Origin: Mugil cephalus
Taxonomy: Eukaryota
Assembly (NCBI RefSeq): GCF_022458985.1
Contig: NC_061789.1
Location: forward strand, 11,479,707 to 11,543,706
Length of the DNA: 64,000 nucleotides
Reading direction: 5' to 3'
The notes beneath the pieces are model-generated. The model made no database searches, had not been told where the DNA came from, and worked only from the letters and a program-made list of their open reading frames with translations. Made by a program: the position numbers and the translations under genes. Position 1 is the stretch's first letter; the number at the start of each line of letters is the position of its first letter. Below are positions 11,917-60,300 of the stretch, piece after piece.

Positions 11917-12237
<321 letters not shown>

Positions 12238-23657: not shown

Positions 23658-23688
<31 letters not shown>

Positions 23689-35442: not shown

Positions 35443-35565
35443 GATTAATTTCTGACTTTTAATTCTTCATATGTCAGTGATGGCATCACAATTTTTCATA
35501 AAAAAATAAAATAAAATAACATAAAAACACTGACATATAAAGGGTTAAAAGTCAGAAATTTATCA
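35443..35565. repeat. Imperfect palindrome, MITE-like (~37-bp arms at ~85% identity around a ~48-bp A-rich spacer)
   Basis: Left arm gattaatttctgacttttaattcttcatatgtcagtg; the right arm cactgacatataaagggttaaaagtcagaaatttatc is its reverse complement. The deletion junction of truncated copy 3 (38722) maps to the inner edge of the right arm. Paralog at about 53043-53165. Confidence 0.55.
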
Positions 35566-36197: not shown

Positions 36198-36355
36198 CTG
36201 TGCTCTTTGCGGCTGTACGGGAAGACGTGCGGCCGAATCCGGGCGGAAAGAGTCAATTTTAAGAAAATGAGAATAAGTTCACAGAGTAAGAGGCCGCAGA
36301 CGGAAAGGAGATTCGTCTGACGGGAAATGTGTGTCGTGTGGGCGTCAGCAACAGT
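36198..36355 (-). promoter_or_regulatory. mvp: Candidate mvp promoter and non-coding first exon (element Y, copy Y1)
   Basis: The minus strand reads ...GCCGCACGTCTTCCCGTACAGCCGCAAAGAGCACAG|gtaagacg with a consensus donor. Just upstream lie CACGTG, TGACGgg and GC-rich motifs. It sits 3.6 kb 5' of the mvp exon 1 acceptor, and human MVP also has a non-coding first exon. The element recurs four times, always 5' of an mvp copy or fragment. Confidence 0.35.
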
Positions 36356-36900
36356 CACGTGGGTAAAAAAATAAATATAGAAAATAAATGAGAAAACATT
36401 TATGAGACAACATAAGAAACGTAGACAGTCTTCAGATACTTATATTATACGGTCTCCTTATGAATAAAAGAAAAGTTCTGAGTAATTTTTAATTATCGAG
36501 CAGCGATTAGTTAACGTGACTTCCGCTTTCGAGATCCGGCGGAATAAAGACATTTAACAGCCTACTGAAAATAAATTTCCTTTTATGAACTTGCACTTGG
36601 AATATTTAGTAACTTACAATTGGAACATTTATTAAATAACAATTTTTTAAAAATATAGTTGAATTTTATGTTTTTTTTTTAATTTTTATTAAAATGTTTA
36701 TTATTCTTATCTGTCATTTTATTATTCTTACTTATGTGATTATTTCCAAAAATATATATACATTGACATTATTTTTAAAATATTATCTATCATTATTATT
36801 TATAATTTGTTATTGTTTTTTAAAATATACATTTTGTTTAATCTCACGTACCCCCTGGAGTACCTTCAAGTAGTATATACGGTCAATGATACCCCCAGGA
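36356..36900. repeat. AT-rich element A', second copy of the mvp 3'-flank element at 23740-24260 (also at 41340-41860 and 53950-54480)
   Basis: Shared string gaaatatagaaaataaat...aacgtagacagtcttaagatac...cgagcagcgattagctaacgtgacttccgctttcgagatccggc...gaacttggacttggaatatt... The Y1|A' boundary at about 36355 marks the older tandem-duplication junction. Confidence 0.7.
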
Positions 36901-37084
36901 CATTTTGAGAACCATGATCTCCATACATCCACTGAATATCACCCTACTGTATACCCACTGTTGTAGTTGATTTTAAGTAGTGCAAGTATTTTAAACTTTG
37001 TAAAGAAAGTAGAACGTTCCATAAATAAAAAAAATAAAAAAAAAAGAGAGAAAACACCTCAGTAAAGTGTCAGTTTTTAAAATT

Positions 37085-38722
37085 GTTAAGTATACCAGCA
37101 GCAGTACTCGATGGGGCCCCGCAGCATCCAGTGGTCTCCGGGGCGACGGAGGATGCCAATCCTCCCCCGTGCGGCGGTCCTGTCAGCAAAGATATGTCAG
37201 ACGGTCCAAAGGAAGGAGAAGAGAAAGAAACCTTAAATCTTTGTCTTTCTAATCTATTGTTGGTATTATGTGGAGTGTTCTGTGTGAAGAAAGTTTGATT
37301 TTTGTGTGTGTGTCTGTTACCTGTGACCCTCTGGACTCCTCCTCGGTCTTTGCCCTCCTTGCGAGCTCTCAGCCTGATGGCCTGGTTCTCTCGGATCACT
37401 GTGGCCTTGATGGTCTCCAGAACCGCCACCTCCTTCCTGGGGATGTAGGTCCCTGGAAGAAAACCAGATGTTGTTAGTGGGGATCTTTGGGTCCTATGGG
37501 TTGAGGGGAGGGGCCTCTGTGGGTCATCTCACAGATACTTGATCAGTTTGGGATCTGGTGAATTTGATTTCAGGAACGATGGGGCTGATCTGTTCAGAAA
37601 TCTGGAGGAAAAATATTCCTGGGGGGAAAACATCAAGAATAAAAGAAAGTGACCAAAAGGCTTGAAGATGCACTGAGAGTTTTTCCAGGAGCTGTGGGAT
37701 CCCACCTGGTCCTTCGAACAGCCACTCGTCTCCGGCCACTCTCTTCTCCCCTCCCACCTCCTCAAAGTCCAGCAGAGCCTGCAGACGCAGCGCCGTGTCC
37801 AGATACACGATCTGCAGAGGTGTCGGGTCCTGAAGGAGAAAAACAAACAAACAAACAAAAGATTACCTTTCTCACAGTAGTTTCTCTTTATTTAAAGACT
37901 GACTTTTATTCTAATCTTTTGATTACAATAATCTAAAGCCTGGTTTCCATGCCGACCTTCTGGACCTCCTCTCCAGGGTACAGAGGGAACGGGTCCTGCG
38001 TCAGGCGGATCTCCAGGTCGGCGTGACGCAGCTTGGCTTGACCCGATTGGTCAAACAAAACCTGGCCGTTGTCGTCACGGGCAACGGGGTTGGCGATAAC
38101 GCAGTAGTGACGCGGCGGAACCATCGTCATACGAACCGGTAAAAAAAGCACTCTGTTAAAAAAGAAAATAAAAAAACTGATGTTAAATTCTGATTTGAAT
38201 AAGAGATGTGAGACACTGACTGGAAATGGAGCTGAAACTAAATGGAAGACAATCAAACTCCAGCAGCTACAACACAGAGAGTCTGTCCCACCTCTCATTG
38301 TCCTGGCGGATGTAGGTGAGTGGTCCGACCTCCACACGGGTGATGTTGGTGTTCTGGTCCAGGACGTGGATGTAGTGATGAGGAGGGATCTGGATGATGG
38401 ACGCATCCATCAGGGCTTCCACCTCAGGCCCACGGTTTCCGCCCTTCTTAGACATCATGGCAAAGAAACGCTGCACAGGAACAGAAACATGTGGAGGGCT
38501 TTAGGTCCACGCCATGTACGGACTCCACTGAACACCCCGACCCCTACGGCTAAACTGACTGTTGATACGAACACAGACAAAAGAGGCAAGTACGAAGAGA
38601 CAAAGGATGCAAAAAAAAGATTCAAAAAGACACAAAAAAAATATCATAAAGATGCAAAAAGCAGCCACAACGACACAAGTAACCTGAAACCGACAAAATA
38701 CAATGACAACAGATGATGGAAA
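37085..38722 (-). pseudogene. mvp: Truncated mvp 5' fragment (copy 3): exons 1-4 with introns, ending in a mosaic junction
   Basis: Exon 1 is 38292..38411 ([10 protein letters not shown]...), exon 2 38152..37957 (VPPRHYC), exon 3 37829..37706 ([13 protein letters not shown]), exon 4 37452..37321. Intron 4 continues down to 37212. Then 37105-37157 copies an exon-8 interior piece, 37158-37184 an exon-6 interior piece and 37185-37207 an intron-5 piece, followed by the AT-rich element. Retained intronic pieces argue against a retrocopy. Confidence 0.8.
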
Positions 38723-39568
38723 AAGAACACTGACATATAAAGGGTTAAAAGTCAGAAATTTATCAAACTTTTGGTATTATACTTAGTAAAGAAGTGGATT
38801 AAATGATTCAGTTTAAAAAGTAGAAAAAAATATTAAATTAAAATTCTCCCTGAAGCAGAATAAATAGGTGTGTGTGACTTTTACTTGGAAGATCTCCCTC
38901 TAAGGTCATTAATGCAAAACAGCTGATTCATGCAAAGGCAAAAATACACTCCAAAGAGCCTGCTCCTGTCTAAAACACGGTCCGGATGAATCTCATCAGA
39001 CTGTACACATCTTTACATTGCATTCTGGTTTTGTTGTATATTGATGCGCTGAAGAAAGAAGTGATCACCGCTTAAAAAGGTTTATTTACAAGAAAGAACA
39101 ATGTCAAAAACTCAGCCGAATCTGAGAGGGCTTCTCGTTCAGCTCCACCATACACACACAAAACTTATGTCCTTATATCTGGTTAGTTTTAAGATCTGGC
39201 ATTTGGTAAATGACTTTTTGACCTCAAACATACACACTTTATACACACTTCACATACACAAAAGGGAAAGAAGAGAAAAACAAGAAGATAATTTACTACA
39301 GTTTCCACTCAACATCCGCAAACCAACAAAAGAACCTGCCAAACGACTTCCGCATGATAAACCTCAACGTCAAACTGCATGAGAAATAGTGTTAATTAAA
39401 GTCCCAGGCCTTGCAAGAGACAAACATTGACATTTATACGATTTACATGCTTTAGGATTAACATAAACGTTTCATCTTTATTTTTAATTTTTAACCCGTG
39501 AATCCAAAGAGAGATTGCAGAGAAGAGTTCTGGAGAAGATGCACTTGGAAATTGGTCCAGCGTCTTAC

Positions 39569-39780
39569 CTGTGCTCTTTGCGGCTGTACGGGAAGACGGG
39601 AAGACGGTCGGCTGCTCAAGCGAATCCGGGCGGAAAGAGTCGATTTTAAGAAAACGAATAAAAGTTTACTGAGCAAGAGGCCGCAGACGGCGAGCGAGGG
39701 GGAGATTGTTCTCTGTTACCGGAAGAGGAGGAGAGGTCGCGTCAGTTTCTGGGTAGTAGCAGTGACGTAGGACGTATTTC
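39569..39780 (-). promoter_or_regulatory. Element Y copy Y2, 5' of truncated mvp fragment copy 3 (candidate promoter plus non-coding exon)
   Basis: Shares the CAAAGAGCACAG|gtaagacgctgg donor, with upstream ccggaag (ETS-like) and gtgacgtaggacgt (CRE-like). Carries a 30-bp insertion relative to Y1. Confidence 0.3.
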
Positions 39781-40910
39781 AGTAGCTCAGGAAATCTCCT
39801 AATCTCCTAATTTATAATCAGTTAGTCCCTTAGAATAAATATCTGTAAGTTATTTATTTTATTATTATTATTTTTAAAAACTTTATATAACAATGGCTTA
39901 CTCATTTTTGACACTTTACTCATAATTAACATTTTAAAAAGCCTTTATTCTGGCACAAGAGCACACAACAAGATTAAGGGTATTACTTCTGACAAATATT
40001 CAATCAGTAAATACGAACAGATGACAGACCACATACAGTCTTAAAACGTCAATGAATTATATAAAAGATGTCAATAGTAGTGTCATGTGAAAGAAATGAT
40101 GCATTCAAAAATTAAAATAGTGCACTTGGACTGATGACGCATGGGTAAAAACTTAGTTTAGTTTATTTCGAACATGTTAAAAGCAAACAAAATAATCATA
40201 CACCATACAAGGGACATAAAGAACCTAAACAACAAAAAGAAAATGAAAAATAAAGTTAAAATTACAGATTTTACATGACCAAAAAGAAGTGGAAGTACAG
40301 ACTTATTTTATCCCACCCCTTCTTAATAGATCAATAGTATTTGTATATTTGTATAATCATAGCAATATTCTGTTTTGAAATCTGTGTTTGTGCCTTCTTC
40401 ACTGCTGCACAGGTCTTCCACCCTTCTCCCCATTCATGTGTCGAGGCTTTTTAAGGTGTCTCCTAAAGCCAATGATTAGTTCATTTTCATTTATTTGGAC
40501 TACTTATGGGCCCAAACAAAGAATGACAGTATGTATAGACCATTGGGAAAATCTGGATATCCTAAAGCAAAATGCCAGGCATCACTTTATATTCAGTTTG
40601 AAGTAGCTCAGTCTCAGTAAAAAACTTAAGAAAAAATAAAACACAGGCTCAGGATAACATTATAGATATTTAATGGGTAAACAAACAATTCAGCTGAGAG
40701 GACAAAGAATGCACAAAACAAGGGGGAATATCAAAAGAAAAGCACGCACACAGATAACATCCAGCTCCAGTTTAACCCTTACATGTTTAATTCGTTTTAT
40801 AAACCACTATTTTAATGTTTTTCTGTCAAAGATATTGTTTATCCAACTAGAACAGAGTAAAATAGAATATTTCTCAATATGAAGCATTGTGTGAAAGGTT
40901 TAAAATGATT

Positions 40911-41100
40911 GCTTAAAGAGAAGTTAAATAAGGTGACACAAAATAACGTAAAACTTTTAATGAAGTTCATCATGTTTATCGTTTCAATGCTGGCCAGTGG
41001 AGTTCATCAGGGAATGATGTTGGGTCTTCTTTATCTTCATTTTTTTTCTATGAACTTCTAATTATTTTTTTCAAAAGAAGTTCTTCATGATTAAATCTTC
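40911..41100 (+). mobile_element. Degenerate reverse-transcriptase fragment from a LINE/non-LTR retrotransposon, just inside the unit 1 | unit 2 boundary
   Basis: Encodes ...SMLASGV(H/P)QGMMLGLLYL..., a decayed version of the RT motif GVPQGSVLGPLLF. The paralogous ORF 58465..58647 reads MLASGVPQGMMLGLLYLQFF. Confidence 0.45.
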
Positions 41101-44100
41101 TAATTTAAGGTTATGAACCACCGATGAGCTACAGTTCATCTTTCCAATGGTTCAGCTAAGAAACAAAATCTATGTTTTATATCCAAGATTTGTCTTGAGA
41201 GGATTTCTACTCTTTTTCTGTAAAGGATAATCATTTCACCATGTCACGCCATCTTGCAGGAATTCATCGTGCACGAACGAATACTGCTGCTGATTTTTTT
41301 TTTAAATTACTCCGACGTCGCTAGCCATAGCTAGAGGGCACGTCTGATAAATAATAAAAAATAGTAATAAAAAAGAAATACAGAAAATAAATTAATGAAT
41401 ATACAACATAAGAAACGTAGACAGTCTTAAGATACTTCTATCATACAGTCTCTTTATGAATAAAAGAAAAGTTCTAAGTAATTTTTAATTATCGAGCAGC
41501 GATTAGCTAACGTGACTTCCGCTTTCGAGATCCGGCAGAATAAAGACGTTTAACAGCCTACTGAAAATAAATTTCCTCTTATGAACTTGGACTTATTTGG
41601 TAACTTACAATTTATTAAATAACTATTTTAAAAAAATATTACTGAATTTGAATTTTATGTGTTTTTTAAAAAAATATTTATTAAAATATTCATTATTCTT
41701 ATCTATCATTTTATTATTCTTATTTGATGATTTAAAAAAAATGTATACATTGACATTATTTTTAAAATATTATCTATCATTATTATTCATAATTTGTTAT
41801 TGTTTTTTAAATATACATTTTGTTTAATGTCACGTACCCCCTGGAGTACCTTCAAGTAGTATATACAAAAAAGAGAGAGAAAACAACTCAGTAAAGTATC
41901 CGTTTTTAATATTGGTAAGTATACCAGCAGCAGCAGCAGCAGCACACAGGTCTTAACGTAGGAACAACAGCACTTTTTAAGGCAAAGAGAAAAACTACAC
42001 AACCTCCACCACAGAAGTAGAAATGCTCAATACAGACTATACGTTTATATTTGTTAATTTCTGTGGCTATAGTGCAAAGCAGAAAGGGAAATCTTTGGCT
42101 TTTAGGTGTCAACAAAGTAAACAAAAAGTTATGAAGTTTTTAGGCACAATTATTCCATTAACAGCATCAGTTCACGGACACATCACATGTTGTCAGTTCT
42201 GCTCTGTCAAAACTCAGAGTCTCATTTCTTCTGTAAAGTAATGATCAGTAACAGTGAACATCGCGTCTACGTTGTACAACCTGGAGAAAATAAACCAAGG
42301 ACGTGAGTCTGCTTCCCTGCTCCGTCTGAAAGTGTGTCATCTAATAAACAAACAGCAAATTTTATTTTTAGAGGTCTGACATTTTTATGCAGAGAGTGAA
42401 ATGCGTTTTAATATTAGACGACCCACTTTTATGTAAGAACAATGAAACAGTTCCTTTTATTTCTCATGCTGAGTTTTGAACATAGAATTTTGATTGTAGA
42501 GAAGCAGTGAATCTAAGGATTCAGTAACTTCCTGGTTATATAAACTGGACAAACTTTGTTTAATTTTTCTGATCCAAGCATAAGATAGAAAGTATAGAAA
42601 AAAGGGTTTTCTTTTAAGCTTGTTTGTTTATTTTAATTGTTCACGCTGTACATTTGCATGAACATAATTCTAGTAAACATTACTTGTGGCGTGGTCAGCT
42701 TTTTTATTTTTATATTTCCCCTCCCCTTCCTCACGGTGCCGAACCCTGTCCCAACCCTGGCAGCGCCCCCAGCAGGCCGTTGGCCGTAGTGAAGAGGTTT
42801 ATGGGAGACGAGCCATCCGTGATGAGGGTGGACTTGAGTCCCAGAGCCTGGAGCATCTTCACCTGTAGGAAACAAACCACTGTGAGTTTAAAATCCTGCA
42901 CAAAGTCAAGGTACTTCTAATGAGCCGCTTTACGTCCTCTCTGAAGTAGATTTTAATTTCTAATTTTTGGTACGGTACCTGCAGCTCTGGTCCGGCTCTG
43001 GCGATCTCCTTCAGCGTGTCACTGCCCAGACTCTCCACCAGCTTCTTGAAGTGGGCACTTTCGATTTGAGCCAGACGCTCCTGCTTCTCCACCTCCAGAT
43101 TATCCATCTCCTTCTTATAGTTGAGCTCCTGCTCACGCGCCTTCGCCAGGCGCTGGAGCTCCGCCTCCTGCGCACACACACAGAAAAAAAAAAAAACACA
43201 GATGAAAACAAACTTCTGATTAAATCATTTTGGTGACCGACATGCTGTAGAGATGAAAGTCATATGTACTTAACAGAGCTTTAAGGTTGGCATTAAACAA
43301 AACGTGCAGCCGATTATCCCAGCGCATGCTGTTGTGGGCGGAAGTAGAGATGGTAGTGTATGTTATCGAGCTTACTGTCCGGTGGGAAGACAGAGTTGAG
43401 GAGGCTAATGAGCGCGAGAGAGCTCGATATTCAGAGATGGCAGCAGAAGCTGAGCAGCGAGGGTAGAGCGACTGCGTGCGGCCGGTGGAGGTGGGTTGCC
43501 GTGGAACCCACCATCTCCTGTGTGAGCTGGGCATTCGTGGGAGAGAACAAAGGGTGACATGTCCCTGGCAGCAGAGCGATCAAGTGAGTGGCTGTGGCTG
43601 AGGAGGAAACATGCTAGCTGGGGAGCATGCTGGGGAGCAAGGTTAGGCTAGCTGGTTTTAGTAGTTAGTAGTAGGGCTAAGCTAATCTCTCGGTTGAAAG
43701 TTACACGGTTGTGTGGTGGCAGCATGGAGAGGGGGCCCCCCAAGACACTGGAACTTACTGTTCAGCCTTCTTGAGGTGTCGTGGGCCTTAACAAAACATC
43801 GGTGAAGGGAGGTGCCCACTTGAAAACCCCAAAGATGTGTCGCATACTGCCTATTGCCGTTGGCTAGGCTAGTTAGATGGCGTCTTCTTGTTGGTTGCTA
43901 ACCGGTAGCTGACAGCGAGCCTGCTGGTCGGTTTTTCAGTTGGACTGGGCTTCTAAAGTCAGCCCTGGATGCCTAAATATTGAGCAAAAAATGACCATAC
44001 TCCATCAGTTTATTTTTAAGAAGGAAAATAAAGCAATGCAAGCAATTTTCTACCTAAATAAAATTGCCAAAAAGCAAAAAATTTCCCCTTGCTGACAAAA

Positions 44101-45432
44101 AGAACTTTTTTTTAATTAGTATTTTTTAAAGAAATTTCTTTGAAATGCCCTAAAACATTTAACACCTCGGCAGGCTTTCTGTGACCTCCAAACCACCACA
44201 CGACCCAACATCCACAGGCCCAATTTCCCTATTTTTGATATGAAAATTAGGTTGGTTGGAAATTTAGTTTTTGTAGTAGCGACACAGCCAAGTCGTTTCA
44301 GCATCTCAGAGGCGTGCAGTAAGAGACATGCAGCAGCCCACAGTTATCCACTGAAAAGCTGCCAACACCGGCCGGGTTCTTATTCTTGTACTTACCATTA
44401 CCATTTCGTTACAGTACTCCATCCTCTTTTCTACCTACAAAGTCTTCTGAAATCCAGTTCCTCAAATTATTCTCCTCCTCCTCTTGCGTCTACTCCTGTT
44501 GATTCTATCACTCCCAGCTCCTCCTTTTTTCACAGCTGCTAATTATTGGCATCTCTACATCAGTCGTACCAGCAGCTCCGGTGTATTTTATTGAGCTCAT
44601 GCGTGGAGTTTTATGCTAAGAACAGTAAGAGTGGGCGTACCGCCTCGATCCTTTGAGCCTCTGCCTTCAGTTTGGCCTCGCTGACTGCCGCCTCTCCCTG
44701 GATGCGAGCCGCCTCAGCGCGGGACTGAGCCTCCGCCTTAGCAGCTCCCGTGCTCTCCACCGCAGCGCTGAAACACAAGCGCCATCGATTCACTGGGACA
44801 TTTATACTAAACAGTTGCATGGACTCAGCCTCATCAGGCTCCATAGTTTGACATCATTCAACATCAAGGTGTGCATTCACCTGAGCGCCTCCAGCTCCAG
44901 CAGTTCCTTCCTGGCTTTCTCCGCCTGGGCCTGGTCGGTGATCTTCTGCCTCTCCAGCTTCCCCCGAGCCTCCTGCTCCAGACGCTCCGCCTCGTGTCTG
45001 CACACCAACAACACGTCATGAAACCCGGCGGCTTTTCAGCAGCGCTAACCGCTCAAAACCTCAAACTTGTGTGTCTGTGTGACCGTGCGGCCGCCTCCTG
45101 GGAGTTGGTGGTGATCTCGATGGCCAGCTGGACGCTCTTCTGCAGGGCGTCTCGGGTCCTCTGGTCGACGGGCTCCACGGACTGGATGTCCACGCTGCTG
45201 ATCACCAAGTTGTTCTGTTTGAAGCAAAGGTTGGGACGGATCGCCATCTTCTCGTCGAAGCCGAACACAGCGGAACAGATGATCCGGTTGGAGTTCTGCA
45301 GACGAGACAGAACTTAAGATTTAAGAAAGATGTTTCTCTGGAATAAAGGGATATAGATTTTGGTCCATTGTCTACAAACTAGTTTGTAATTTTTTTTTTA
45401 GATACTCTGGGTAAAAAAACAAATGCACTAAC

Positions 45433-45577
45433 CTTACGGAAATCATCAAACTGCACCGAGGCGACAGCTCCTCTGATCTTGGAGGCGATGGCTTTACAGG
45501 CATCTCCCACAAAGTCAGGAACTGAGAACAGAGTTGCTGCAGAAGCAGAGTCGGCCGGCAGCTTGATATCAAAGTGC
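45433..45577 (-). CDS. mvp: mvp copy 2, exon 11 (His to Arg at the conserved FDDFHK motif)
   Basis: Copy 2 reads GAT GAT TTC CGT AAG (FDDFRK); copy 1 and human have FDDFHK. A 28-bp intronic deletion lies just 5' of this exon, at about 45580. Confidence 0.75.
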
Positions 45578-45650
45578 CTGAAGAGGGATGATTGTGATCA
45601 TGAAATAGTAAAACCAGGAGGTGTTTTCCGGCGCTGGACTGTGTGGTTAC

Positions 45651-45848
45651 CAGTTGTAGGAGAGCTGCAGCTGCAGGCGGGCGTGGTCCGCCGTCTCTAT
45701 GGTGATGATGTCAGTGAAGAAGTCTGGCCCCAGCAGGAGGCAGATGGCCTTGATGACGTTGGGCCTCTTCGGTTTGTCCCCGGACAGCGACAGCACGGTC
45801 AAATGCTCATCGGGTCCCAGCATCACCAAATCCGGCCCGAACATCACC
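45651..45848 (-). CDS. mvp: mvp copy 2, exon 10 (Phe to Leu: [12 protein letters not shown] against [12 protein letters not shown])
   Basis: Copy 1 has cacggtgaaatg, copy 2 cacggtcaaatg. Phe is conserved in human (GPEEQFTVLSLS). Confidence 0.75.
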
Positions 45849-48217
45849 CTGCAGACACAACACGATCAGCTCCTCTATCCAACCTCTACACCCAACACCC
45901 ACACAGTCAGGAGAGACGCCCCACCTGGCTTTCTTCTCTCTGTAGTCGTACACCTGGACAGCGGCGTTGTGAGGGACCCTGTAGGAGACCACCCTGGTCT
46001 TCTCCCTCCGCCCGTCCTCTCCCATATTTTGGCGGTCGGAGCGGTCGGACAGCGGGTCGAGGCGGGCGGCCAGCAAGGCCTCGACCTTTGGAGGAAGCTC
46101 CTTCTCCCACAGCTCCTCATCCTGAGTCAGCATGTAGGTGTGACCGATCACCGCTCGCACCTGAGAGGCCGACGGCACACGGTTAACTCATAGTCAAATG
46201 AAGCCGGAGCAGAAAACCAGTTAGCTCGCACCTTTCCAGTCTTATTGTCCCTGACGTAGATCCCCTCGTTCTCGTCCAGGGGGATGGCCTCTTGCCTCAG
46301 CACCACCTCCACTGTGGCGGGGGGGACATACTCGATGGGGCCCCGCAGCATCCAGCGGTCTCCGGGGCGACGGAGGATGCCGCTCCTCCGGGTGCGCTTA
46401 GGCCTGCTCTCCATGGCCCCCTCCTCTTCCTCCTCCTCCTCCTCGTAGTCCTGCTCCATGTGCTGGCAGAGAGAATGGGGCAGAGACAGGAGGGGGGTGG
46501 AAATAAAGGTTAATGTGGGGATGCATTGGCGTGGAGGAGGAGAAGGAGGAGGAGAAGGAGGAGGAGAAGGAGGAGGAGAAGGAGGAGGAGAAGGAGGAGG
46601 AGAGGGGATCGGAGGGAGGCACTGATTAAAAACAACAGAGAACGTGAAAAAATAAAGCGATGGAGTAATAAAAAGAAGAAATGAACGGAGGGACGTCGGG
46701 AGAGAAACAAAGAAGAGTGTGTGATGAGTTAGCAGGAAGAAAAAATTAGGACTTTGACACGATGTCACCTGACCCACAGGTGTGTCTCACCTTTCTACCT
46801 ACATACCAGAGCTGCTTTAACAACGTACAGGTGGTCTTTCTTCCAGACACGCCTCTGTGAAAGCACTATTTGATTTTCTAATCTCCTCCACCTGCTGCTT
46901 GAGGACCGGTTACACAAGATCAATGGTGCAATGTACATCTCCTCCACCCGTCACTGCAGCAGCTCCTCACACAGAGGACGGACGGGGTTAATGTGTTTGA
47001 GCTGGACGTTGACTGTCAGATTCCTGTAGTTCACCGGGACAAAGTGCGCAAGGGGCGAATGGCAGGGTGAAGAAATCTAAGCCACACTGCAGTGAAATAT
47101 GACAGCAGCTCAACCAAGAGGCTCCTGCTACATAACAATCAGGGTGACCCCTCTGCTTCCCACCACTTAGTGACAGCAATGTGTCACTCAGTCGTTTAAC
47201 AAGCTCCAACCCCAAAATGCAGCGTTTTTGTGCAAATATCGAATCAAAAAGTGTCAAAAAGTCTACATTTTAATTAGACTTGATGTCAATTTCATTGTTC
47301 TTTTTATTGTGTTAAACTTTTCTTATTTTTAATAGGGCTGGGCGGTATGACAAAAAAAATATTTTTTTGTTCACAACATTTTCTACGGGTTGAGAGAGGA
47401 GTTAATACAGGAGATTGACTAAGGATGGACTATTTTACTGCGATTATGGGTAAATGTTGGTGTGGAAATTTACAGCTCAGAGATAAAAAACTAATTAAAT
47501 GTCATTAATATAACATGAAGAAACAAGGACAATTATTGTTTCATTTATTTTTACATATTTATTCATATTTAAACTACTATATCTGTAATGTTCATAGCAG
47601 CGCAAATGGCTACTGTAATAGTTGTAGTCTGCGCGCAACATTTTTTTCTCATTCATAAAAGATAAAATTGGGGACACTTTCTGGGATCTCGGTGATAACA
47701 AAACCAACTTGAGGCTTTAAACCTGTTCTTGTTGCAGCTTCTTGTTTCCTGAACTTTTAGCCTGTCCGGCGTCCTGTTGTTTCGTGCAGCTTTACGTACG
47801 AATGATGAACCACATTGGTTTTAGCTTGTTACACTGTAGTAGATTTGATTCAGTTATTGAAAACAAATCAAACCAACACAGTGGTAACATCTGAATCGCC
47901 ACCGGGGCCACTTTGTCCCAGAAAAGTCGGACCCCGAGGTCAAAAAGTTTGAAGACACCTGCTCTATAGGACGTCCACTTTTCCGAATCAGTCTGCCCTC
48001 ACCTCCTCGGTGTCGGTGAAGGCCTCCACGGCTCGCAGCACCAGGCCCTCCTCCTCCGACAGCACGTACACGTCCTGGATGCCCTGTTCAAGATGCTCAC
48101 CCGGCTGCAGGAAAAAGGAGCGCTCACCCTGGAAGGAGGTAGATTAGTGTTTTTTTTGATTGATTGGGTATGTGACTTTACTATAAACACTAAACACTGT
48201 ATCCGGAGGCATCTTAC

Positions 48218-48453
48218 CTTCACCACCTTCTTCTTTCCCAGCTGAGGCTTGCCGTCGTGCCCGACCGGGTCCAGGATCACGCAGTACTGCCTGCTGCTCA
48301 GGGTGGTCACGTTTACCACGCCCACCACCTCCTCCGCCACAGAGGGGATGTGGGCCTCCCTGTCGGCCATGGTGACCAGCCACTCCTCCCCGTGCGGCGG
48401 TCCTGTCCGCCGGCGTCTTTGAAGGGCCGCAGGGCGCGGACGTGCAGCGCTTT
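48218..48453 (-). CDS. mvp: mvp copy 2, exon 6 carrying the frameshifting 1-bp deletion (at about 48387-48391)
   Basis: See the gene-level entry. The copy 2 donor is also gtaaga where copy 1 has gtgaga. Confidence 0.5.
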
Positions 48454-48835
48454 CTGGAGGCGCAGCAAAGATATGTCAGACGGTCCGCAGCTGTTTGTGA
48501 ACGCACCATAATTGAAGTTTCTAAGAGCTGCGTCCAGGCACATATATAATTAGAAGTGTCTCCGTCATAAAGATGCTGCTGAGACGTTAATAACCACTGT
48601 TTTATCTACAATCCTGTTCTCAACCGTTCTGTTGTTTTTTCCACTTCTGGGTTTGTAAAATAGGAAGTAGCAAGAAATCTATGTCAAAGTTCCGCAGTTG
48701 TTGTTTTTGTTTTTTTATACATGTCACCTGAGTCACATAGTGGTAACCACATGATTCTTACTTGGCCGTGAAAACAGGAAGTGGCCTCTATCTTAACAGC
48801 CACTGGAAACAGAAACAGATGAAGCGGAGAGTCAC

Positions 48836-48930
48836 CTTGTCGGTGAGGATGAAGGCGTTGACGATGTCGATGACCTCCTCGTGAGCACCTGGAAGGTACA
48901 CGTCCACTTTGCAGACCAGCCACTCGTCGC
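48836..48930 (-). CDS. mvp: mvp copy 2, exon 5 (Gly-Ala to Asp-Val: KVDVYLPG against KVGAYLPG)
   Basis: Copy 1 has ggtacgcgcccac, copy 2 ggtacacgtccac. Human is VGAYLP. Confidence 0.75.
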
Positions 48931-51900
48931 CTGCACATTTAGCCACGAGTGGGAAAAAAAAAACGTGACAGGAAGGAGAAGAGAAAGAAACCTTAAATCT
49001 TTGTCTTTCTAATCTATTGTTGGTATTATGTGAAGTGTTCCGTGTGAAGAAAGTTTGATTTTTGTGTGTGTGTCTGTTACCTGTGATCCTCTGGACTCCG
49101 CCTCGGTCTTTGCCCTCCTTGCGAGCTCTCAGCCTGATGGCCTGGTTCTCTCGGATCACTGTGGCCTTGATGGTCTCCAGAACCGCCACCTCCTTCCTGG
49201 GGATGTAGGTCCCTGGAAGAAAACCAGATGTTGTTAGTGGGGATCTTTGGGTCCTATGGGTTGAGGGGAGGGGCCTCTGTGGGTCATCTCACAGATACTT
49301 GATCAGTTTGGGATCTGGTGAATTGGATTTCAGGAACGATGGGGCTGATCTGTTCAGAAATCTGGAGGAAAAATATTCCTGGGGGGAAAACATCAAGAAT
49401 AAAAGAAAGTGACCAAAAGGCTTGAAGATGCACTGAGAGTTCTTCCAGGAGCTGTGGGATCCCACCTGGTCCTTCGAACAGCCACTCGTCTCCGGCCACT
49501 CTCTTCTCCCCTCCCACCTCCTCAAAGTCCAGCAGAGCCTGCAGACGCAGCGCCGTGTCCGGATACACGATCTGCAGAGGTGTCGGATCCTGAAGGAGAA
49601 AAACAAACAAACAAAAAAAAGATTACCTTTCTCAACGTAGTTTCTCTTTATTTAAAGACTGACTTTTATTCTAATCTTTTGATTACAATAATCTAAAGCC
49701 TGGTTTCCATGCCAACCTTCTGGATCTCCTCTCCTGGGTACAGAGGGAACGGGTCCTGCGTCAGGCGGATCTCCAGGTCGGCGTGACGCAGCTTGGCTTG
49801 ACCCGATTGGTCAAACAAAACCTGGCCGTTGTCGTCACGGGCAACGGGGTTGGCGATAACGCAGTAGTGACGCGGTGCAACCATCGTCATACGAACCGGT
49901 AAAAAGAGCACTCTGTTAAAAAAGAAAAAAAAGAAACTGATGTTAAATTCTGATTTGAATAAGAGATGTGACACACTGACTGGAAATGGAGCTGAAACTA
50001 AATGGAAGACAATCAAACTCCAGCAGCTACAACACAGAGAGTCTGTCCCACCTCTCATTGTCCTGGCGGATGTAGGTGAGTGGTCCGACCTCCACGCGGG
50101 CGATGTTGGTGTTCTGGTCCAGGACGTGGATATAGTGATGAGGAGGGATGCGGATGATGGACGCATCCATCAGGGCTTCCACCTCAGGCCCACGGTTTCC
50201 GCCCTTCTTAGACATCATGGCAAAGAAACGCTGCACAGGAAAAGAAACATGTGGAGGGCTTTAGGTCCACGCCATGTACGGATTCCACTGAACACCCCGA
50301 CCCCTACGGCTAAACTGACTGTTGATACGAACACAGACAAAAGAGGCAAGTATGAAGAGACAAAGAATGCAAAAAAAAGATTCAAAAAGACACAAAAAAA
50401 GACCCCAAACACACAAAAAATTATCATAAAGTTGCAAAAAGCAGCCACAACGACACAAGTAACCAGAAACTGACAAAATACAATGACAACAGATGGAAAA
50501 AAAAAAAACTCAATGATGAAAATACAATGTGGGCACATAAGACACCCACAAAGATAAAAACACAAAAAACAAAACAACTACAAAGATGCAAAAGACACAC
50601 ACCTGGTAATATCTAAAAAAACAACCTCAAAGTTGAAAAAAAAAAGATCTCAGACACAAAAACAACCACAAGAAAGTAGAAAACCCCACAAAGATGCACA
50701 AAACAACCACTACAAAACCAAAAAAAAAAGATCTCAAAGACAGAAGAACAACCAAAAAAACATAAAAATACAACAAAGATGCAACAGAAGGAGAAAAAAA
50801 TATGTAAAAACAACAACAACAAAAAATATTAAAGGATCTTTATTCTTTTATGCGCCAGTATTCATCATTGTGAATGTATGTGTGGATGTTCTGTCTCCAC
50901 ATCTCAACCATGAATCTAACTGATGACAGATCAATGGACGACAGATTAACTGAGCTTATTAGACAAGCTCTGGTTTAATTCATTTTTATCAGTTTAAAGT
51001 CAACTAAACAAGTTGAGCGTGTCCACTTGGGTGAACACTGAGATCACAGAGAAGTGCAAGAAAAAAAAAAAAGAACAGAGACACACCTTGGTGCAAAGTC
51101 AACCCCAGACGGGTTTATCTCGTTTATCTTGTGACACAATCGACGATTGTTGCTGATTGAATAGTACGAGTCAGTTTACTGAGCATCAGAACGACATCTG
51201 AGCGTCAGCAAGACACAATCTGGGGCCAGTAACCAATGGGACGGTCGATGGGAAAATAAGACGGGGAAATAATGTGATGGACGTCTGTTGCAAATGCGTC
51301 AAGAGAAAATGTCATGAATCAGCTCTTCTCACCGCTATCATAAAAGTCTTTAAGAATACATGCAGCTCATGTGACAAACACGAATCAGTGCATCAATAGA
51401 AAAATCAAAAAGACTTAATCGGAATCTACCTGGACAACGTATGTGCATGTAAACACGTGACTCCGACTAAAATCAGAGTTCTCTTTATCCAATTAAGACG
51501 CCCAGATACTGTGATTGGAATTCCGTTTTCTCTGCCATGTATACGCCTTAATTGGACTACAATCGGATAAGGCATGTGCACCTGCTCTACAACCGCTGCA
51601 CTGGCACGTGACCCCTAAACAAAAACATCGAAGAAAGCCGATCGCAGAAGAAGTTATTAGATTTTCTTCGGTGCATGTAAACTCGGACAAGGACTGTAGT
51701 CAGAAAGTCGAGTTTTGAGCATAGCTCGGTTAAGCTCTGCATGTAAATGCACTGACTGTCGGGACTCAGCCCATTCAAGGCCGCATGGCTCCACTTGTTC
51801 CCCAGACAAAGAAGGTCTTTGAACTCAACCTCCCAGCAGCCTTCACCTTTTTACATCTAGGTGTGAAACCTCCACTCTTGAGGGGGCGGCGGCTTCCCCT

Positions 51901-53796
51901 TACTCTCTTCTCTTAAGCTGTATTTCCATACACAGCCTACCTCTACACCACTGCGCACCACAAACTTTAAATTGCCATTTCCGTTGATAGAAGGTGGGCC
52001 AAACGAGGCCAAAGGGATACTTTTCCAGGACTTAAAAGTACCTCCTCTGTGGTTGGGCCGAAGTAGGTGAATTGGAGTTGAAAATGTGAAGTAAAATGCT
52101 GCTTACTACTGATTGGTTAGAAGAAAAAAAAAAATTGTCACGATGCAGCGCCAGGTACAAAGCTGGATGTTTTGACCAGACGGACACTCCTAAGCAATGG
52201 AAAAGGTAGTTAAAAAAAGGTGGTGAGATGTGGAGTTGTTTAGCGGTAGGCTGCATATGGAAATCTGGGCCTAGTTAGCTTATCTTGCACATAACTTGAC
52301 CAAGCATAGAATACTTCAACCTTGCCAATGTATGTATTGATTGAAACTGGTAAAATACTTTAGCTCGTGGCTGTTGTCTATAGACCGGTGTTTCCCAGTC
52401 CTGCATGTTTTAGATGTTTTCCTCCTCCACCACACCTGATTCAAATGAGTGGCTCGTTATCAGGCCACTGATCATTTGAATCAGGTGTGTTGGAGCAGGA
52501 AACATCTAAAACATGCAGGGCAGTGTTCCTCGAGGACCAGGATTGGGAAACACTGGTCTATAGTCTATAGTCAGTAAACCTGTAACTTGAATTTGAAAAT
52601 CGTGGTGAACAAAGGACACACCTTTGTTCCCCTCACATCACATGTTGGCCTTAGCGTCCATCATGGAGACCAGTTGTTTGTAAACCTCTTTGTCTCTGGA
52701 CCTTTCGCATTGTTTCCCTCACATAGACACTTGGCTTCTTCACACTAACACACACATATCCACATGTGTACATAGTTAAGTGTTTAAAGTTTTGTTATTT
52801 CAGTTTTTAAATGTGTCTGATAAAATTCCTTGAAACTTGAAACGTTGCTCATCTGTTAATGTTGTAGAGGAGTGAATGTGCCAACCTCTACACTGTAGAA
52901 CCCTTAAATCCTTCAAATTTGCTACTATTAATAAGGTAATATTGTTTGTGATTATTAAGTTAATTATGAAGTTAATTAACAACATTCAGTGTTAATAGTT
53001 AGCATACCCACCTTTATGAGACAGATTTGTTAAATAACTGAATTTTGATTAATTTCTGACTTTTAATTCTTCATATGTCAGTGATGGCATCACAATTTTT
53101 CATAAAAAAATAAAATAAAATAAAAACACTGACATATAAAGGGTTAAAAGTCAGAAATTTATCAAACTTTTGGTATTATACTTAGTAAAGAAGTGGATTA
53201 AATGATTCAGGTTAAAAAGTAGAAAAAAATATTGAATTAAATATTATATTAAATTAAAATATGCTATATAATATGCTTCAGGGCATTTTTGTCCCTTAAT
53301 GGTAACAACGTAATAATTTTATAATCAGGTATGAGGATTAAATTCTCCCTGAAGCAGAATAAATAGGTGTGTGTGACTTTTACTTGGAAACCCTCCCTCT
53401 GAGGTCATTAAACAGCTGATTCATGCAAAGGCAAAAATCCACTCCAGAGAGCCTGCTCCTGTCTAAAACATGGTCCGGACGAATCTCAACAGACAGTACG
53501 CATCTTTACATTGCATCCTGGTTTACACTCAACACCAGTAAACAGCAAACAAAAAAAAGAAACTGCCAAACCACTTCCGCATGATATACCTCAACGACAA
53601 ACTGCATGAGAAATAGTGTTCATGTAAATTCCCAGGCCTCGCAAAAGACAAACATTGACATTTATACGATTTACAGGCTTTAGGATTTACATAAATGTTT
53701 CATATTTATTTTTAATATTTAACCCGTGAATCCAAAGGGAGATTGCAGAGAAGAGTTGTGGAGAAGACGCACTCGGAAATTGCTCCAGCGTCTTAC

Positions 53797-53950
53797 CTGT
53801 GCTCTTTGCGGCTGTACGGGCAGACGTGCGGCCGAATCCAGGCGGAAAGAGTCAATTTTAAGAAAATGAGAATAAGTTCACAGAGTAAGAGGCCGCAGAC
53901 GGAAAGGAGATTCGTCTGACGGGAAATGTGTGTCGTTTGTGCGTCAGCAA
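53797..53950 (-). promoter_or_regulatory. Element Y copy Y3 (candidate promoter/non-coding exon 1 of mvp copy 2)
   Basis: Paralog of Y1 with the same CAAAGAGCACAG|gtaagacg donor and upstream CACGTG. Confidence 0.3.
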
Positions 53951-54683
53951 CAGTCACGTGGGTAAAAAAAGAAATATAGAAAATAAATGAGAAAACATTT
54001 ATGAGACAACATAAGAAACGTAGACAGTCTTCAGATACTTATATTATACGGTCTCCTTATGAATAAAAGAAAAGTTCTGAGTAATTTTTAATTATCGAGC
54101 AGCGATTAGTTAACGTGACTTCCGCTTTCGAGATCCGGCGGAATAAAGACATTTAACAGCCTACTGAAAATAAATTTCCTTTTATGAACTTGCACTTGGA
54201 ATATTTAGTAACTTACAATTGGAACATTTATTAAATAACAATTTTTTAAAAATATAGTTGAATTTTTATGTTTTTTTTTTAATTTTTATTAAAATGTTTA
54301 TTATTCTTATCTGTCATTTTATTATTCTTACTTATGTGATTATTTCCAAAAATATATATACATTGACATTATTTTTAAAATATTATCTATCATTATTATT
54401 TATAATTTGTTATTGTTTTTTAAAATATACATTTTGTTTAATCTCACGTACCCCCTGGAGTACCTTCAAGTAGTATATACGGTCAATGATACCCCCAGGA
54501 CATTTTGAGAACCATGATCTCCATACATCCACTGAATATCACCCTACTGTATACCCACTGTTGTAGTTGATTTTAAGTAGTGCAAGTATTTTAAACTTTG
54601 TAAAGAAAGTAGAACGTTCCATAAATAAAAAAAATAAAAAAAAAGAGAGAAAACACCTCAGTAAAGTGTCAGTTTTTAAAATT

Positions 54684-56320
54684 GTTAAGTATACCAGCAG
54701 CAGTACTCGATGGGGCCCCGCAGCATCCAGTGGTCTCCGGGGCGACGGAGGATGCCAATCCTCCCCCATGCGGCGGTCCTGTCAGCAAAGATATGTCAGA
54801 CGGTCCAAAGGAAGGAGAAGAGAAAGAAACCTTAAATCTTTGTCTTTCTAATCTATTGTTGGTATTATGTGGAGTGTTCTGTGTGAAGAAAGTTTGATTT
54901 TTGTGTGTGTGTCTGTTACCTGTGACCCTCTGGACTCCTCCTCGGTCTTTGCCCTCCTTGCGAGCTCTCAGCCTGATGGCCTGGTTCTCTCGGATCACTG
55001 TGGCCTTGATGGTCTCCAGAACCGCCACCTCCTTCCTGGGGATGTAGGTCCCTGGAAGAAAACCAGATGTTGTTAGTGGGGATCTTTGGGTCCTATGGGT
55101 TGAGGGGAGGGGCCTCTGTGGGTCATCTCACAGATACTTGATCAGTTTGGGATCTGGTGAATTTGATTTCAGGAACGATGGGGCTGATCTGTTCAGAAAT
55201 CTGGAGGAAAAATATTCCTGGGGGGAAAACATCAAGAATAAAAGAAAGTGACCAAAAGGCTTGAAGATGCACTGAGAGTTCTTCCAGGAGCTGTGGGATC
55301 CCACCTGGTCCTTCGAACAGCCACTCGTCTCCGGCCACTCTCTTCTCCCCTCCCACCTCCTCAAAGTCCAGCAGAGCCTGCAGACGCAGCGCCGTGTCCG
55401 GATACACGATCTGCAGAGGTGTCGGGTCCTGAAGGAGAAAAACAAACAAACAAACAAAAGATTACCTTTCTCACAGTAGTTTCTCTTTATTTTAAGACTG
55501 ACTTTTATTCTAATCTTTTGATTACAATAATCTAAAGCCTGGTTTCCATGCCGACCTTCTGGACCTCCTCTCCAGGGTACAGAGGGAACGGGTCCTGCGT
55601 CAGGCGGATCTCCAGGTCGGCGTGACGCAGCTTGGCTTGACCCGATTGGTCAAACAAAACCTGGCCGTTGTCGTCACGGGCAACGGGGTTGGCGATAACG
55701 CAGTAGTGACGCGGCGGAACCATCGTCATACGAACCGGTAAAAAGAGCACTCTGTTAAAAAAGAAAATAAAAAAACTGATGTTAAATTCTGATTTGAATA
55801 AGAGATGTGAGACACTGACTGGAAATGGAGCTGAAACTACATGGAAGACAATCAAACTCCAGCAGCTACAACACAGAGGGTCTGTCCCACCTCTCATTGT
55901 CCTGGCGGATGTAGGTGAGTGGTCCGACCTCCACACGGGTGATGTTGGTGTTCTGGTCCAGGACGTGGATATAGTGATGAGGAGGGATGCGGATGATGGA
56001 CGCATCCATCAGGGCTTCCACCTCAGGCCCACGGTTTCCGCCCTTCTTAGACATCATGGCAAAGAAACGCTGCACAGGAAAAGAAACATGTGGAGAGCTT
56101 TAGGTCCACGCCATGTACGGACTCCACTGAACACCCCGACCCCTACGGCTAAACTGACTGTTGATACGAACACAGACAAAAGAACCAAGTACGAAGAGAC
56201 AAAGGATGCAAAAAAAAAAAAGATTCAAAAATACACAAAAAAAATATCATAAAGATGCAAAAAGCAGCCACAACGACACAAGTAACCTGAAACCGACAAA
56301 ATACAATGACAACAGATGAT
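54684..56320 (-). pseudogene. mvp: Truncated mvp 5' fragment (copy 4), the duplicate of copy 3 with the identical mosaic junction
   Basis: Exon 1 is 55891..56009, exon 2 55556..55751, exon 3 about 55305..55428, exon 4 about 54920..55051. The junction pieces at 54704-54810 match 37105-37211. Because the same junction is in both, the truncation predates the 17.6 kb duplication. Confidence 0.75.
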
Positions 56321-57172
56321 GGAAAAAAAACACTGACATATAAAGGGTTAAAAGTCAGAAATTTATCAAACTTTTGGTATTATACTTAGTAAAGAAGTGG
56401 ATTAAATGATTCAGTTTAAAAAGTAGAAAAAAATATTAAATTAAAATTCTCCCTGAAGCAGAATAAATAGGTGTGTGTGACTTTTACTTGGAAGATCTCC
56501 CTCTAAGGTCATTAATGCAAAACAGCTGATTCATGCAAAGGCAAAAATACACTCCAAAGAGCCTGCTCCTGTCTAAAACACGGTCCGGATGAATCTCATC
56601 AGACTGTACACATCTTTACATTGCATTCTGGTTTTGTTGTATATTGATGCGCTGAAGAAAGAAGTGATCACCGCTTAAAAAGGTTTATTTACAAGAAAGA
56701 ACAATGTCAAAAACTCAGCCGAATCTGAGAGGGCTTCTCGTTCAGCTCCACCATACACACACAAAACTTATGTCCTTATATCTGGTTAGTTTTAAGATCT
56801 GGCATTTGGTAAATTACTTTTTGACCTCAAACATACACACTTTATACACACTTCATATACACAAAAGGGAAAGAAGAGAAAAACAAGAAGATAATTTACT
56901 ACAGTTTCCACTCAACATCCGCAAACCAACAAAAGAACCTGCCAAACCACTTCCGCATGATAAACCTCAACGTCAAACTGCATGAGAAATAGTGTTAATT
57001 TAAAGTCCCAGGCCTTGCAAGAGACAAACATTGACATTTATACGATTTACATGCTTTAGGATTAACATAAACGTTTCATCTTTATTTTTAATTTTTAACC
57101 CGTGAATCCAAAGAGAGATTGCAGAGAAGAGTTCTGGAGAAGATGCACTTGGAAATTGGTCCAGCGTCTTAC

Positions 57173-57350
57173 CTGTGCTCTTTGCGGCTGTACGGGAAGA
57201 CGGGAAGACGGTCGGCTGCTCAAGCGAGAGGCCGCAGACGGCGAGCGAGGGGGAGATTGTTCTCTGTTACCGGAAGGGGAGGAGAGGTCGCGTCAGTTTC
57301 TGGGTAGTAGCAGTGACGTAGGACGTATTTCAGTAGCTCAGGAAATCTCC
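57173..57350 (-). promoter_or_regulatory. Element Y copy Y4, 5' of truncated fragment copy 4
   Basis: Paralog of Y2. Confidence 0.3.
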
Positions 57351-60300
57351 TAATCTCCTAATTTATAATCAGTTAGTCCCTTAGAATAAATATCTGTAAG
57401 TTATTTATTTTATTATTATTATTTTTAAAAACTTTATATAACAATGGCTTACTCATTTTTGACACTTTACTCATAATTAACATTTTAAAAAGCCTTTATG
57501 CTGGCACAAGAGCACACAACAAGATTAAGGGTATTACTTCTGACAAATATTCAATCAGTAAATACGAACAGATGACAGACCACATACAGTCTTAAAACGT
57601 CAATGAATTTTGTAAAAGATGTCAATAGTAGTGTCATGTGAAAGAAATGATGCATTAAAACATTAAAATAGTGCACTTGGACTGATGAAGCATGGGTAAA
57701 AACTTAGTTTAGTTTATTTCGAACAAGTTAAAGGCAAACAAAATAATCATACACCATACAAGGGACATAAAGAACCTAAACAACAAAAAGAAAATGAAAA
57801 ATAAAGTTAAAATTACAAATTCTACATGTCCAAAAAGAAGTGGGAGGAAGTACAGACTTATTTTATCACACCCCTTCTTAATAGATCAATAGTATTTGTA
57901 TATTTGTATAATCATAGCAATATTCTGTTTTGAAATCTGTGTTTGTGCCTTCTTCACTGCTGCACAGGTCTTCCACCCTTGTCCCCATTCATGTGTCGAG
58001 GCTTTGTAAGGTGTCTCCTAAAGCCAATGATTAGTTCATTTTCATTTATTTGGACTACTTATGGGCCCAAACAAAGAATGACAGTATGTATAGACCATTG
58101 GGAAAATCTGGATATCCTAAAGCAAAATGCCAGGCACCACTTTATATTCTGTTTGATGTAGCTCAGTCTCAGTAAAAAACTTAAGAAAAAATAAAACACA
58201 GGCTCAGGATAACATTATAGGTATTTAATGGGTAAACAAACAATTCAGCTGAGAGGACAAAGAATGAACAACACAAGAGGGAATATCAAAAGAAAAGCAC
58301 GCACACAGATAACATCCAGCTCCAGTTTAATCCTTACATGTTTAATTTGTTTTTTTAAACCACTATTTTAATGTTTTTCTGTCAAAGATATTGTTTATCC
58401 AACTAGAACAGAGTAAAATAGAATATTTCTGAATATGAAGCATTGTGTGAAAGGTTTAAAATGATTGCTTAAAGAGAAGTTAAATAAGGTGACACAAAGT
58501 AATGTAGAACTTTTAATGAAGTTCATCATGTTTATCTATTCAATGCTGGCCAGTGGAGTTCCTCAGGGAATGATGTTGGGTCTTCTTTATCTTCAATTTT
58601 TTTTCTATAAACTTTTGATTATTTTTTTCAAAAAAAGTTCTTCATGATTAAATCTTCTTAATTTTAGGTTATGAACCACCGATGAGCTACAGTTCATCTT
58701 TCCAATGGTTCAGCTAAGAAACAAAATCTATGTTTTATATCCAAGATTTTTCTTGAGAGGCTTTCTACTCTTTTTTTCCACTGTATTTTTTAAAGCACTA
58801 TAAATAAAGGTTTACTCAATAACGTTTCAATGTAGATGCATGTTTTAAAATAAGAACTACCTCCAGACTGATTTGACACCCCGGTTGGAGGTATTCTCTA
58901 CCAGACAACTGTGAAATACATGTTGCAATTCATATATATATATATAAAAGACTATAGTACATACATTACATTATTATTACATTATATACCAGCTTTTGTT
59001 AAAAGTTATAATTCTTTCAGTCTTGGTCAAAACTGCTACCTTCCTGTGAGTGCTTCACAAAAAAGCCCCACCGCTTATTTCACCTTTGGAAGCCTTGAAC
59101 TGTCAACATTAAAAAACAAAAACAAAAAAAAAAAAAACACACACACACATCATAAATAGTTCTGAAAACTGAAGTTTTGTTTTAAGTCTTTCATATTGAG
59201 AACAGTGTTGGGGTAAGGAGGGACTTTCCTGAGAATCAGAAATCTAAAACAGAGCATCTCATTCACACAGAGGTCACATGATCACGGGACAACAACAGAC
59301 ACACCAGATTTAACAGTCTTTTTTTTTTTTTTTTACAAATATAACACGTTCATAGAGCTATGGCATGCTATATATGAACACATGATCGATACGTCGCAGG
59401 CTGAAAACAACATTTCATAAACAAACAACAGACAGTAACAGCGAGATCAGGATTGTTTTTAAAGGAATTGTAAGTGAAAATATTTCAGGGAAATCTGTAC
59501 AGACTTTGGTTGAATATGTGCTCCTGTAGTGTACAATATACATATATAGATAACTCTAAATTTAAATACTAATTTGACTAAAATGAATATCAAAAAATAG
59601 TATATGTATATAACTGACACGTCACATGCCGCCTTCCACTGTGCACACATGTGATCTGAGCTGAACATGCTTCTCTTCCCTTTGTATAAACAACACAAGC
59701 GAGCAGTTAATCAGGTCTATAGGAGCTTCACAAAAACACACATGTAGAAAAGGTCAGTTTGAACAGAACAGACACACTGATTAAGATTAAAACGCCACGT
59801 AAGATTGATTGGTATAAAATAGATTTCTTTAAATATCACAAAGGTAAAATTTGAAATGGTCAGACGCAGCGATGAAAGAGCTGGAGAGAAACGAGACTGT
59901 CCAGGTTTTGTTCCAGCAAAAAGAACACTGAGTTTAGTACGAAAGAAATGGTAAAATTATAGGCCTGGATGAGGATAAAGACAGAAACAAGTGGATAGAA
60001 TCCATTTTCGTGTCCTTCTGATGAATCCCCGCCCGTCTTTTAGCTCTGCTTTTGGTCTCCACCAGCTCCAGAAAGTCACCGCTGTGAGCTAAAGGCAGGA
60101 AATGTTCTGAAAACCCAAACAATAAGCTAAAACAGGCTAAAAAGCTCCCGAGTGTGTTAAAGTGCAACAACAGCTGACGTTGGCTCCTAAAAAACCTTCA
60201 ACTCCCAATAAAATAAAATAAAAAAATCTTCTCTAGATATTTCTGCAAGATTGATGTTTGTAATTGCAGTAACTTATCCGTTAGCATAATGCAGCTAGAG

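Follow-up and report, generated by a model that had tools for sequence, protein, structure and literature searches.

A tandem duplication of mvp in Mugil cephalus with one frameshifted copy, probably a young pseudogene

Results

Organization of the locus

The window analyzed here, 64,000 nucleotides of Mugil cephalus DNA (contig NC_061789.1 of assembly GCF_022458985.1), contains a clean head-to-tail tandem duplication with a unit of 17.65 kb. Self-BLAST, global alignment, and direct reading of the boundaries place unit 1, which carries mvp copy 1 and the relic of an older mvp duplicate (relic 1), at positions 23569 to 41219 and unit 2, with mvp copy 2 and relic 2, at positions 41220 to 58777. 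The junction between them (41219/41220) is precise to the base, with neither an N gap nor filler, and the outer flanks have no homology to it. Exons of the two units differ by substitutions at 1.05% of positions, introns at 1.16%, and intergenic DNA at 1.36%, and the global alignment contains 37 indel events, 36 of them noncoding. At typical teleost rates, the noncoding divergence of 1.2 to 1.4% would place the duplication of the segment holding mvp and the relic, roughly, a few million years ago. The longest identical tracts shared by the units (659, 637, and 512 bp) are mildly above the uniform expectation. The largest difference in homopolymer length is found near the unit start, close to the duplication boundary, where a poly-T tract has about 27 T in unit 1 (23662 to 23688) and about 10 T in unit 2 (41295 to 41304).

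Three genes flank the duplication: a C2H2 zinc-finger gene (340 to 1464, minus strand), a PRRT2-like gene with a CD225 domain, of which two exons were seen (11917 to 13127, plus strand), and a Caskin-like gene (61547 to 63289, minus strand) recognized by its Caskin proline-rich region (E = 4e-40). The position of the PRRT2-like gene near mvp echoes the gene order of human 16p11.2.

Copy 1 (25121 to 32575, minus strand) comprises 16 coding exons, separated by 15 introns that are all GT-AG, and has an intact open reading frame of 887 amino acids. Its product is 100% identical to XP_047427480/81/82 (Mugil cephalus major vault protein-like isoform X1) and aligns end to end with human MVP (1263 bits, through residue 853). 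Pfam recovers four stretches of Vault, together with Vault_2, Vault_3, Vault_4, and MVP_shoulder (residues 555 to 673). The protein has the architecture of an MVP, with an N-terminal array of vault repeats followed by the shoulder domain and the cap-helix/cap-ring (from Pfam and the human alignment); its uninterrupted frame falls within the expected length of about 860 to 890 amino acids, and copy 2 as assembled has no such frame. The two full genes share 22 departures from the fish consensus, e.g., P123, Q255, and H530. Exon 8 opens with an acidic, E-rich insertion that human MVP does not have, and intron 7 contains, immediately before exon 8, a GGAGGAGGAGAA microsatellite that in copy 2 (46533 to 46603) exceeds its copy 1 counterpart (at about 28934) by 36 bp. 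Two database records look wrongly labelled: a full-length MVP from Sarotherodon galilaeus carries the name "voltage-gated sodium channel type V alpha," and nr lists a cichlid-type MVP as an unnamed Mustela putorius furo product, probably through contamination.

Relic 1 (37105 to 38458, minus strand) derives from an older duplicate of the whole gene; relic 2 (54704 to 56057, minus strand) is its copy in unit 2 and has the same internal deletions. Each retains exons 1 to 4, with an open frame and intact splice sites, followed by internally deleted remnants: the last 24 nt or so of intron 5, then 24 nt from exon 6 and some 56 nt from exon 8, and finally mvp 3' flank. The exon 6 remnant includes a run of five G in both relic 1 (37160 to 37177) and relic 2 (CGCATGGGGGAGGA). 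The relics are about 4% diverged. Because they decayed by internal deletion and sit beside the full copies, the locus appears to have gone through two successive rounds of mvp duplication and decay. At residue 68 both full genes have A (copy 1, 32269 to 32074), and 99% of fish and both relics (38152 to 37957 and 55751 to 55556) have P. Certain mullet-specific changes at conserved positions therefore date from between the first duplication and the second. The NCBI isoform X3 (XP_047427484) consists of the 5' exons of relic 1, including its private R23Q and P131L, joined to copy 1, and reflects either a genuine alternative 5' cassette or a chimeric prediction.

The frameshift in copy 2

Copy 2 (42731 to 50218, minus strand) has the same 16 exons as copy 1, is 99% identical to it, and retains its ATG, its TGA, and all 30 splice sites. 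All 15 introns lie inside the 17.65-kb units, the pattern of a pseudogene produced by genomic duplication together with its introns and flanks. Coding exon 6 of copy 2 (48218 to 48453, minus strand) measures 236 nt, versus 237 nt in copy 1 (30587 to 30823); there are zero substitutions between the two exons, which differ by the deletion alone. The one-base loss that the original prediction had placed in this exon (C5 to C4) is confirmed and is the sole indel across the 2664-nt coding sequence.

The shortened run occupies positions 48388 to 48391 (minus strand; G4 on the coding strand, codons 260 and 261), and its homolog in copy 1 is an in-frame C5 run at 30757 to 30761 (minus strand). The coding strand over this site reads CGC ACG GGG GAG GAG TGG CTG GTC ACC in copy 1 and CGCACGGGGAGGAGTGG in copy 2. 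The encoded segment RTGEEWLVT is conserved to human, as had been proposed, and hardly varies among 118 fish, in which T259, G260, E262, W263, and T266 are invariant. Five bases are the ancestral state, present in three of the four copies of the motif in the window (copy 1 and both relics); the G4 of copy 2 is derived, because the exon 6 remnants of both relics also carry G5.

The shifted frame runs into a TAA at 48313 to 48315 (minus strand, codon 285). A stop soon after the frameshift had been anticipated, about 30 codons on; we count 24 aberrant codons. Between this TAA and the last exon junction, farther downstream, there are 1676 nt of mRNA. As assembled, copy 2 specifies 260 native and 24 aberrant residues, a product in which Pfam finds Vault and Vault_2 alone, with the shoulder and cap-helix absent. 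The DNA of copy 2 still encodes the shoulder and cap regions, out of frame as assembled.

Polarity of the replacements

The coding sequences of the two copies differ by 28 substitutions, 20 synonymous and 8 nonsynonymous, which were polarized in an alignment of 118 other fish MVPs, the relics of the window, and human MVP. In copy 2, six derived replacements occupy positions with at least 91% conservation across the 118 fish, and five of the six positions are also conserved in human MVP; copy 1 has zero replacements of this kind. These six, all on the minus strand, are V205I in exon 4 (49087; V in 118 of 118 fish and in human), G216D and A217V in exon 5 (48903 and 48900; G and A in 117 of 118 fish and in human), F531L in exon 10 (45800; F in 118 of 118 fish and in human), which is the sole transversion in the comparison of the mvp coding sequences, H628R in the shoulder domain, encoded by exon 11 (45437; H in 118 of 118 fish and in human), and R820H in exon 15 (43052; R in 107 and K in 10 of the 118 fish).

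The original prediction listed the changes from RVTG to RITG, KVGAYLP to KVDVYLP, EHFTVLSLS to EHLTVLSLS, and FDDFHK to FDDFRK, each of which we recover, and it correctly assigned the conserved state at these sites to copy 1 (117 to 118 of 118 fish MVPs, and human MVP). It did not include R820H or two further differences, M13V and A146V, which fall at positions that vary among fish. Because the relics carry the copy 2 state at both of these positions, the changes are assigned to copy 1, as V13M and V146A. The contention that replacements concentrate in copy 2 holds for conserved sites; in the full set, copy 1 accounts for two of the eight replacements.

Over the 5' 1.5 kb of both genes (31300 to 32900 versus 48940 to 50550), polarization by the relics yields 12 derived changes in copy 1 and 4 in copy 2, and all six differences in exons 1 to 3, including V13M and V146A, are derived in copy 1. 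This asymmetry, opposite to that in the remainder of the gene, could be due to chance or to patchy gene conversion of copy 2 by a relic.

Selection on the two copies

Between copies 1 and 2, dN is 0.004 and dS is 0.032, for a dN/dS of 0.11 to 0.125. Under neutrality about 70% of substitutions would be nonsynonymous, and the chance of 8 or fewer among 28 is below 1e-4. The ratio sits at the teleost background for MVP of 0.11 to 0.15 (dN/dS is 0.11 to 0.18 over the comparisons of mullet with six other fish and among those fish). A rough split of the synonymous changes, polarized with the relics and six distant, noisy outgroups (dS of 0.44 to 0.61), attributes about 10 of them to the copy 1 branch and 8 to the copy 2 branch, which puts branch omega at about 0.06 and about 0.22, respectively. 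The value for copy 2 is below 1 (P of about 0.03) and not significantly above that for copy 1 (Fisher test, P = 0.22). Because dN/dS is at background and omega on the copy 2 branch is below 1, purifying selection appears to have acted on copy 2 through most of its history, and whatever decay there is would be very recent.

The relaxed constraint suggested by the original prediction is not visible in dN/dS, the test that it had asked for, and emerges instead from where the replacements fall. Conservation reaches at least 90% at 81% of MVP positions, the share that random placement of differences would give. Among ten independent close pairs of functional fish MVPs, 40 of 142 differences (28%) fall in such conserved columns, versus 6 of 8 in the mullet pair (Fisher test, P = 0.011). 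On the copy 2 branch, the six conserved-site hits observed compare with about 0.9 expected (Poisson P of about 3e-4), an expectation scaled from the 17 such substitutions on the mugilid branch (dS of about 0.25) to the copy 2 branch (dS of about 0.014). The recent replacements of copy 2 fall on conserved and variable positions as if by chance alone, and this means relaxed constraint, as in a pseudogene; with a branch omega still near 0.22, the signal is recent or partial.

The exonic differences comprise 27 transitions and 1 transversion, as opposed to 103 and 87 in noncoding DNA (P = 5e-6), and half of the exonic changes lie in a CpG context. Synonymous divergence, at 3.2%, is nearly three times that of introns (1.16%). 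CpG context probably accounts for part of the transition excess and of the high synonymous divergence. The coding sequence contains one indel, versus about 5 expected at the noncoding ratio of indels to substitutions; as a test of selection this deficit was set aside as unclean, because most noncoding events occur in long A/T runs and microsatellites, which are absent from the coding sequence.

The missing base and the assembly

Exact matches to isoform X1 and to the relic-derived residues of isoform X3 indicate that the window comes from the assembly CIBA_Mcephalus_1.1. This assembly was produced from PacBio Sequel II CLR subreads with wtdbg2 and a single Illumina POLCA polish, and the PacBio reads used were longer than 30 kb, exceeding one duplication unit (PMC9247318). 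The indel aside, positions 48216 to 48640, a stretch of about 425 bp around the run, show no difference between the copies. Gene conversion was rejected as the cause of this identical tract, there being no multi-kilobase converted blocks between the units. The disabling deletion of copy 2 is seen in the assembly at a site where short-read polishing could not have mended an error: because the copies are otherwise identical over the tract, 150-bp reads would be unable to correct the run, and because genuine G5 reads of copy 2 origin would find a perfect match in copy 1, a consensus error in the C4 run would survive.

Noncoding runs of 3 to 5 nt differ in length between the units in 2 of 875 cases (0 of 77 for 5-mers and 0 of 192 for G/C runs), and nearly all 1-bp indels between the units sit in A/T runs of at least 6 nt. 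Because length changes in short homopolymers are this rare, residual consensus noise in the duplicated 35 kb is low.

The repaired copy 2 protein was absent from a collection of 15 billion proteins, which fits, weakly, with copy 2 not being annotated as coding. The top protein matches included the three models based on copy 1 and no M. cephalus mvp flagged "LOW QUALITY PROTEIN." Residues 121 to 284 of the raw copy 2 translation had no match above 88% identity in the protein collection, and so no mullet fragments.

Discussion

The reading that we favor, with a probability of roughly 0.6, is that copy 2 is a young, unprocessed (duplicated) mvp pseudogene in Mugil cephalus and that its frameshift is real. 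The earlier suggestion of a nascent pseudogene is retained on account of the frameshift and the six conserved-site hits, with the qualification that dN/dS is at background and that the decay would be very recent. The locus has behaved in this way before, each unit bearing the relic of an earlier decayed mvp duplicate. Several observations speak against a pseudogene: the disabling lesion is single and lies in a homopolymer, with the start, stop, and 30 splice sites intact; pairwise dN/dS is at the teleost background, with the copy 2 branch below 1 and not above copy 1; and a consensus error at the run would survive the CLR/wtdbg2/POLCA pipeline. A literature search on mvp duplication in fish returned nothing relevant.

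The history that we propose begins with the head-to-tail duplication of a 17.65-kb segment containing mvp and an already decayed relic. Purifying selection would then have held both full copies for most of the time, until redundancy released copy 2 and six replacements accumulated at otherwise conserved residues. In the latest step, slippage in the G5 run of coding exon 6 would have lost one G, a deletion that we infer to be present in the fish itself, and the shifted frame would end at the TAA 24 codons on. Because this stop lies 1676 nt before the last exon junction, the copy 2 mRNA is a predicted target of nonsense-mediated decay. Any protein made from it would contain about four and a half vault repeats and be without the later repeats, the shoulder, and the cap-helix. 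The shoulder and cap-helix are needed for vault assembly, and copy 2 would presumably have lost its function.

The missing base might instead be an error in the assembly consensus, a possible but less probable reading in which copy 2 would be an intact second paralog, somewhat relaxed through its redundancy with copy 1. CLR reads assembled with wtdbg2 and polished once with short reads could yield such an error, the lesion is a 1-bp homopolymer contraction within an identical stretch of about 425 bp where 150-bp reads are unplaceable, and everything else required for the expression of copy 2 is intact. The dN/dS values, 0.12 overall and about 0.22 on the copy 2 branch, are both below 1, and NCBI flags the MVP of another fish assembly as "LOW QUALITY PROTEIN," so such assembly frameshifts do occur in mvp. 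However, discordance in short homopolymer runs is very rare over 2 x 17.6 kb, affecting 2 of 875 and sparing the G/C runs and 5-mers altogether, and consensus errors leave six point substitutions at conserved residues unexplained; hits at residues at least 91% conserved, five of them to human, are hard to square with a fully functional MVP. A fuller version, which we hold to be doubtful, combines an artifactual frameshift with two expressed MVP paralogs, at a locus that looks single-copy in the other fish examined, and the use of relic exons 1 to 4 as alternative 5' cassettes, of which isoform X3 would be a sign; the locus would then be an mvp array undergoing birth and death, and its second vault subunit would be diverging.

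It is quite improbable that each chromosome carries one mvp gene and one relic and that the units are haplotypes falsely laid in tandem, with copy 2 being an allele. False duplications are a known assembly artifact, and haplotypes in a large marine population could reach the unit divergence of 1.1 to 1.4%, but the junction is base-precise and gapless, with outer flanks that lack homology to it, and reads of more than 30 kb exceed one unit. Moreover, wtdbg2 tends to collapse haplotypes, not to duplicate them, and the locus carries an older, certainly real, tandem duplication. The six conserved-site hits and the frameshift also imply a long period of relaxed constraint, which fits a redundant duplicate better than an allele. 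We consider it most unlikely of all that the frameshift is real and the product of copy 2 useful, whether as a 284-residue N-terminal vault-repeat fragment or as an in-frame isoform that skips exon 6. The truncated protein does still match the Vault and Vault_2 models, and exons 5 and 7 are both phase 0, so that skipping exon 6 keeps the frame; yet the skip loses 79 residues and cuts through repeat domains, the truncated protein is without shoulder and cap-helix, and a stop far upstream of the last junction would be expected to trigger nonsense-mediated decay. A cryptic acceptor directly after the run (…GGGGAG/GAG TGG) would be in frame and was rejected, the sequence upstream of it being purine-rich and without a pyrimidine tract.

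For annotation, the second M. cephalus mvp locus is best treated as a pseudogene or flagged for a read check, and not as a second vault gene, and the duplication and relic structure accounts for the chimeric-looking isoform X3 model. If copy 2 is a pseudogene, the locus offers a snapshot of a duplicate near death, with dN/dS at background, a recent burst of conserved-site replacements, one frameshift, and an older decayed duplicate beside it. This is textbook gene birth and death, a matter of ordinary genome turnover that opens no new question.

MVP structures are known from human and rat (e.g., 4V60 and 4HL8). Copy 1 is like known MVP in all Pfam domains and in its alignment to the human protein; copy 2 shares the 16-exon structure and as assembled encodes only the first four and a half repeats. 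Whereas mvp appears as a single gene per species among the fish matches, the mullet locus has two full copies and two relics. The lesion in copy 2 resembles the frameshifts behind "LOW QUALITY PROTEIN" models, such as the MVP of Acanthochromis polyacanthus, in being a single-base homopolymer indel in an otherwise perfect gene, within a long-read assembly polished with short reads; unlike those cases, copy 2 also has six conserved-site substitutions, and its corrected model was not found in the protein collection. Relative to unprocessed pseudogenes in general, copy 2 is unusual in being very young, in having one lesion, known from the assembly alone, and in having a dN/dS well below 1. It is like them in that its introns and flanks were duplicated along with it, in its early frameshift and premature stop, in the intact sister copy adjoining it, and in the replacements at conserved residues, which the disabled copy has in excess.
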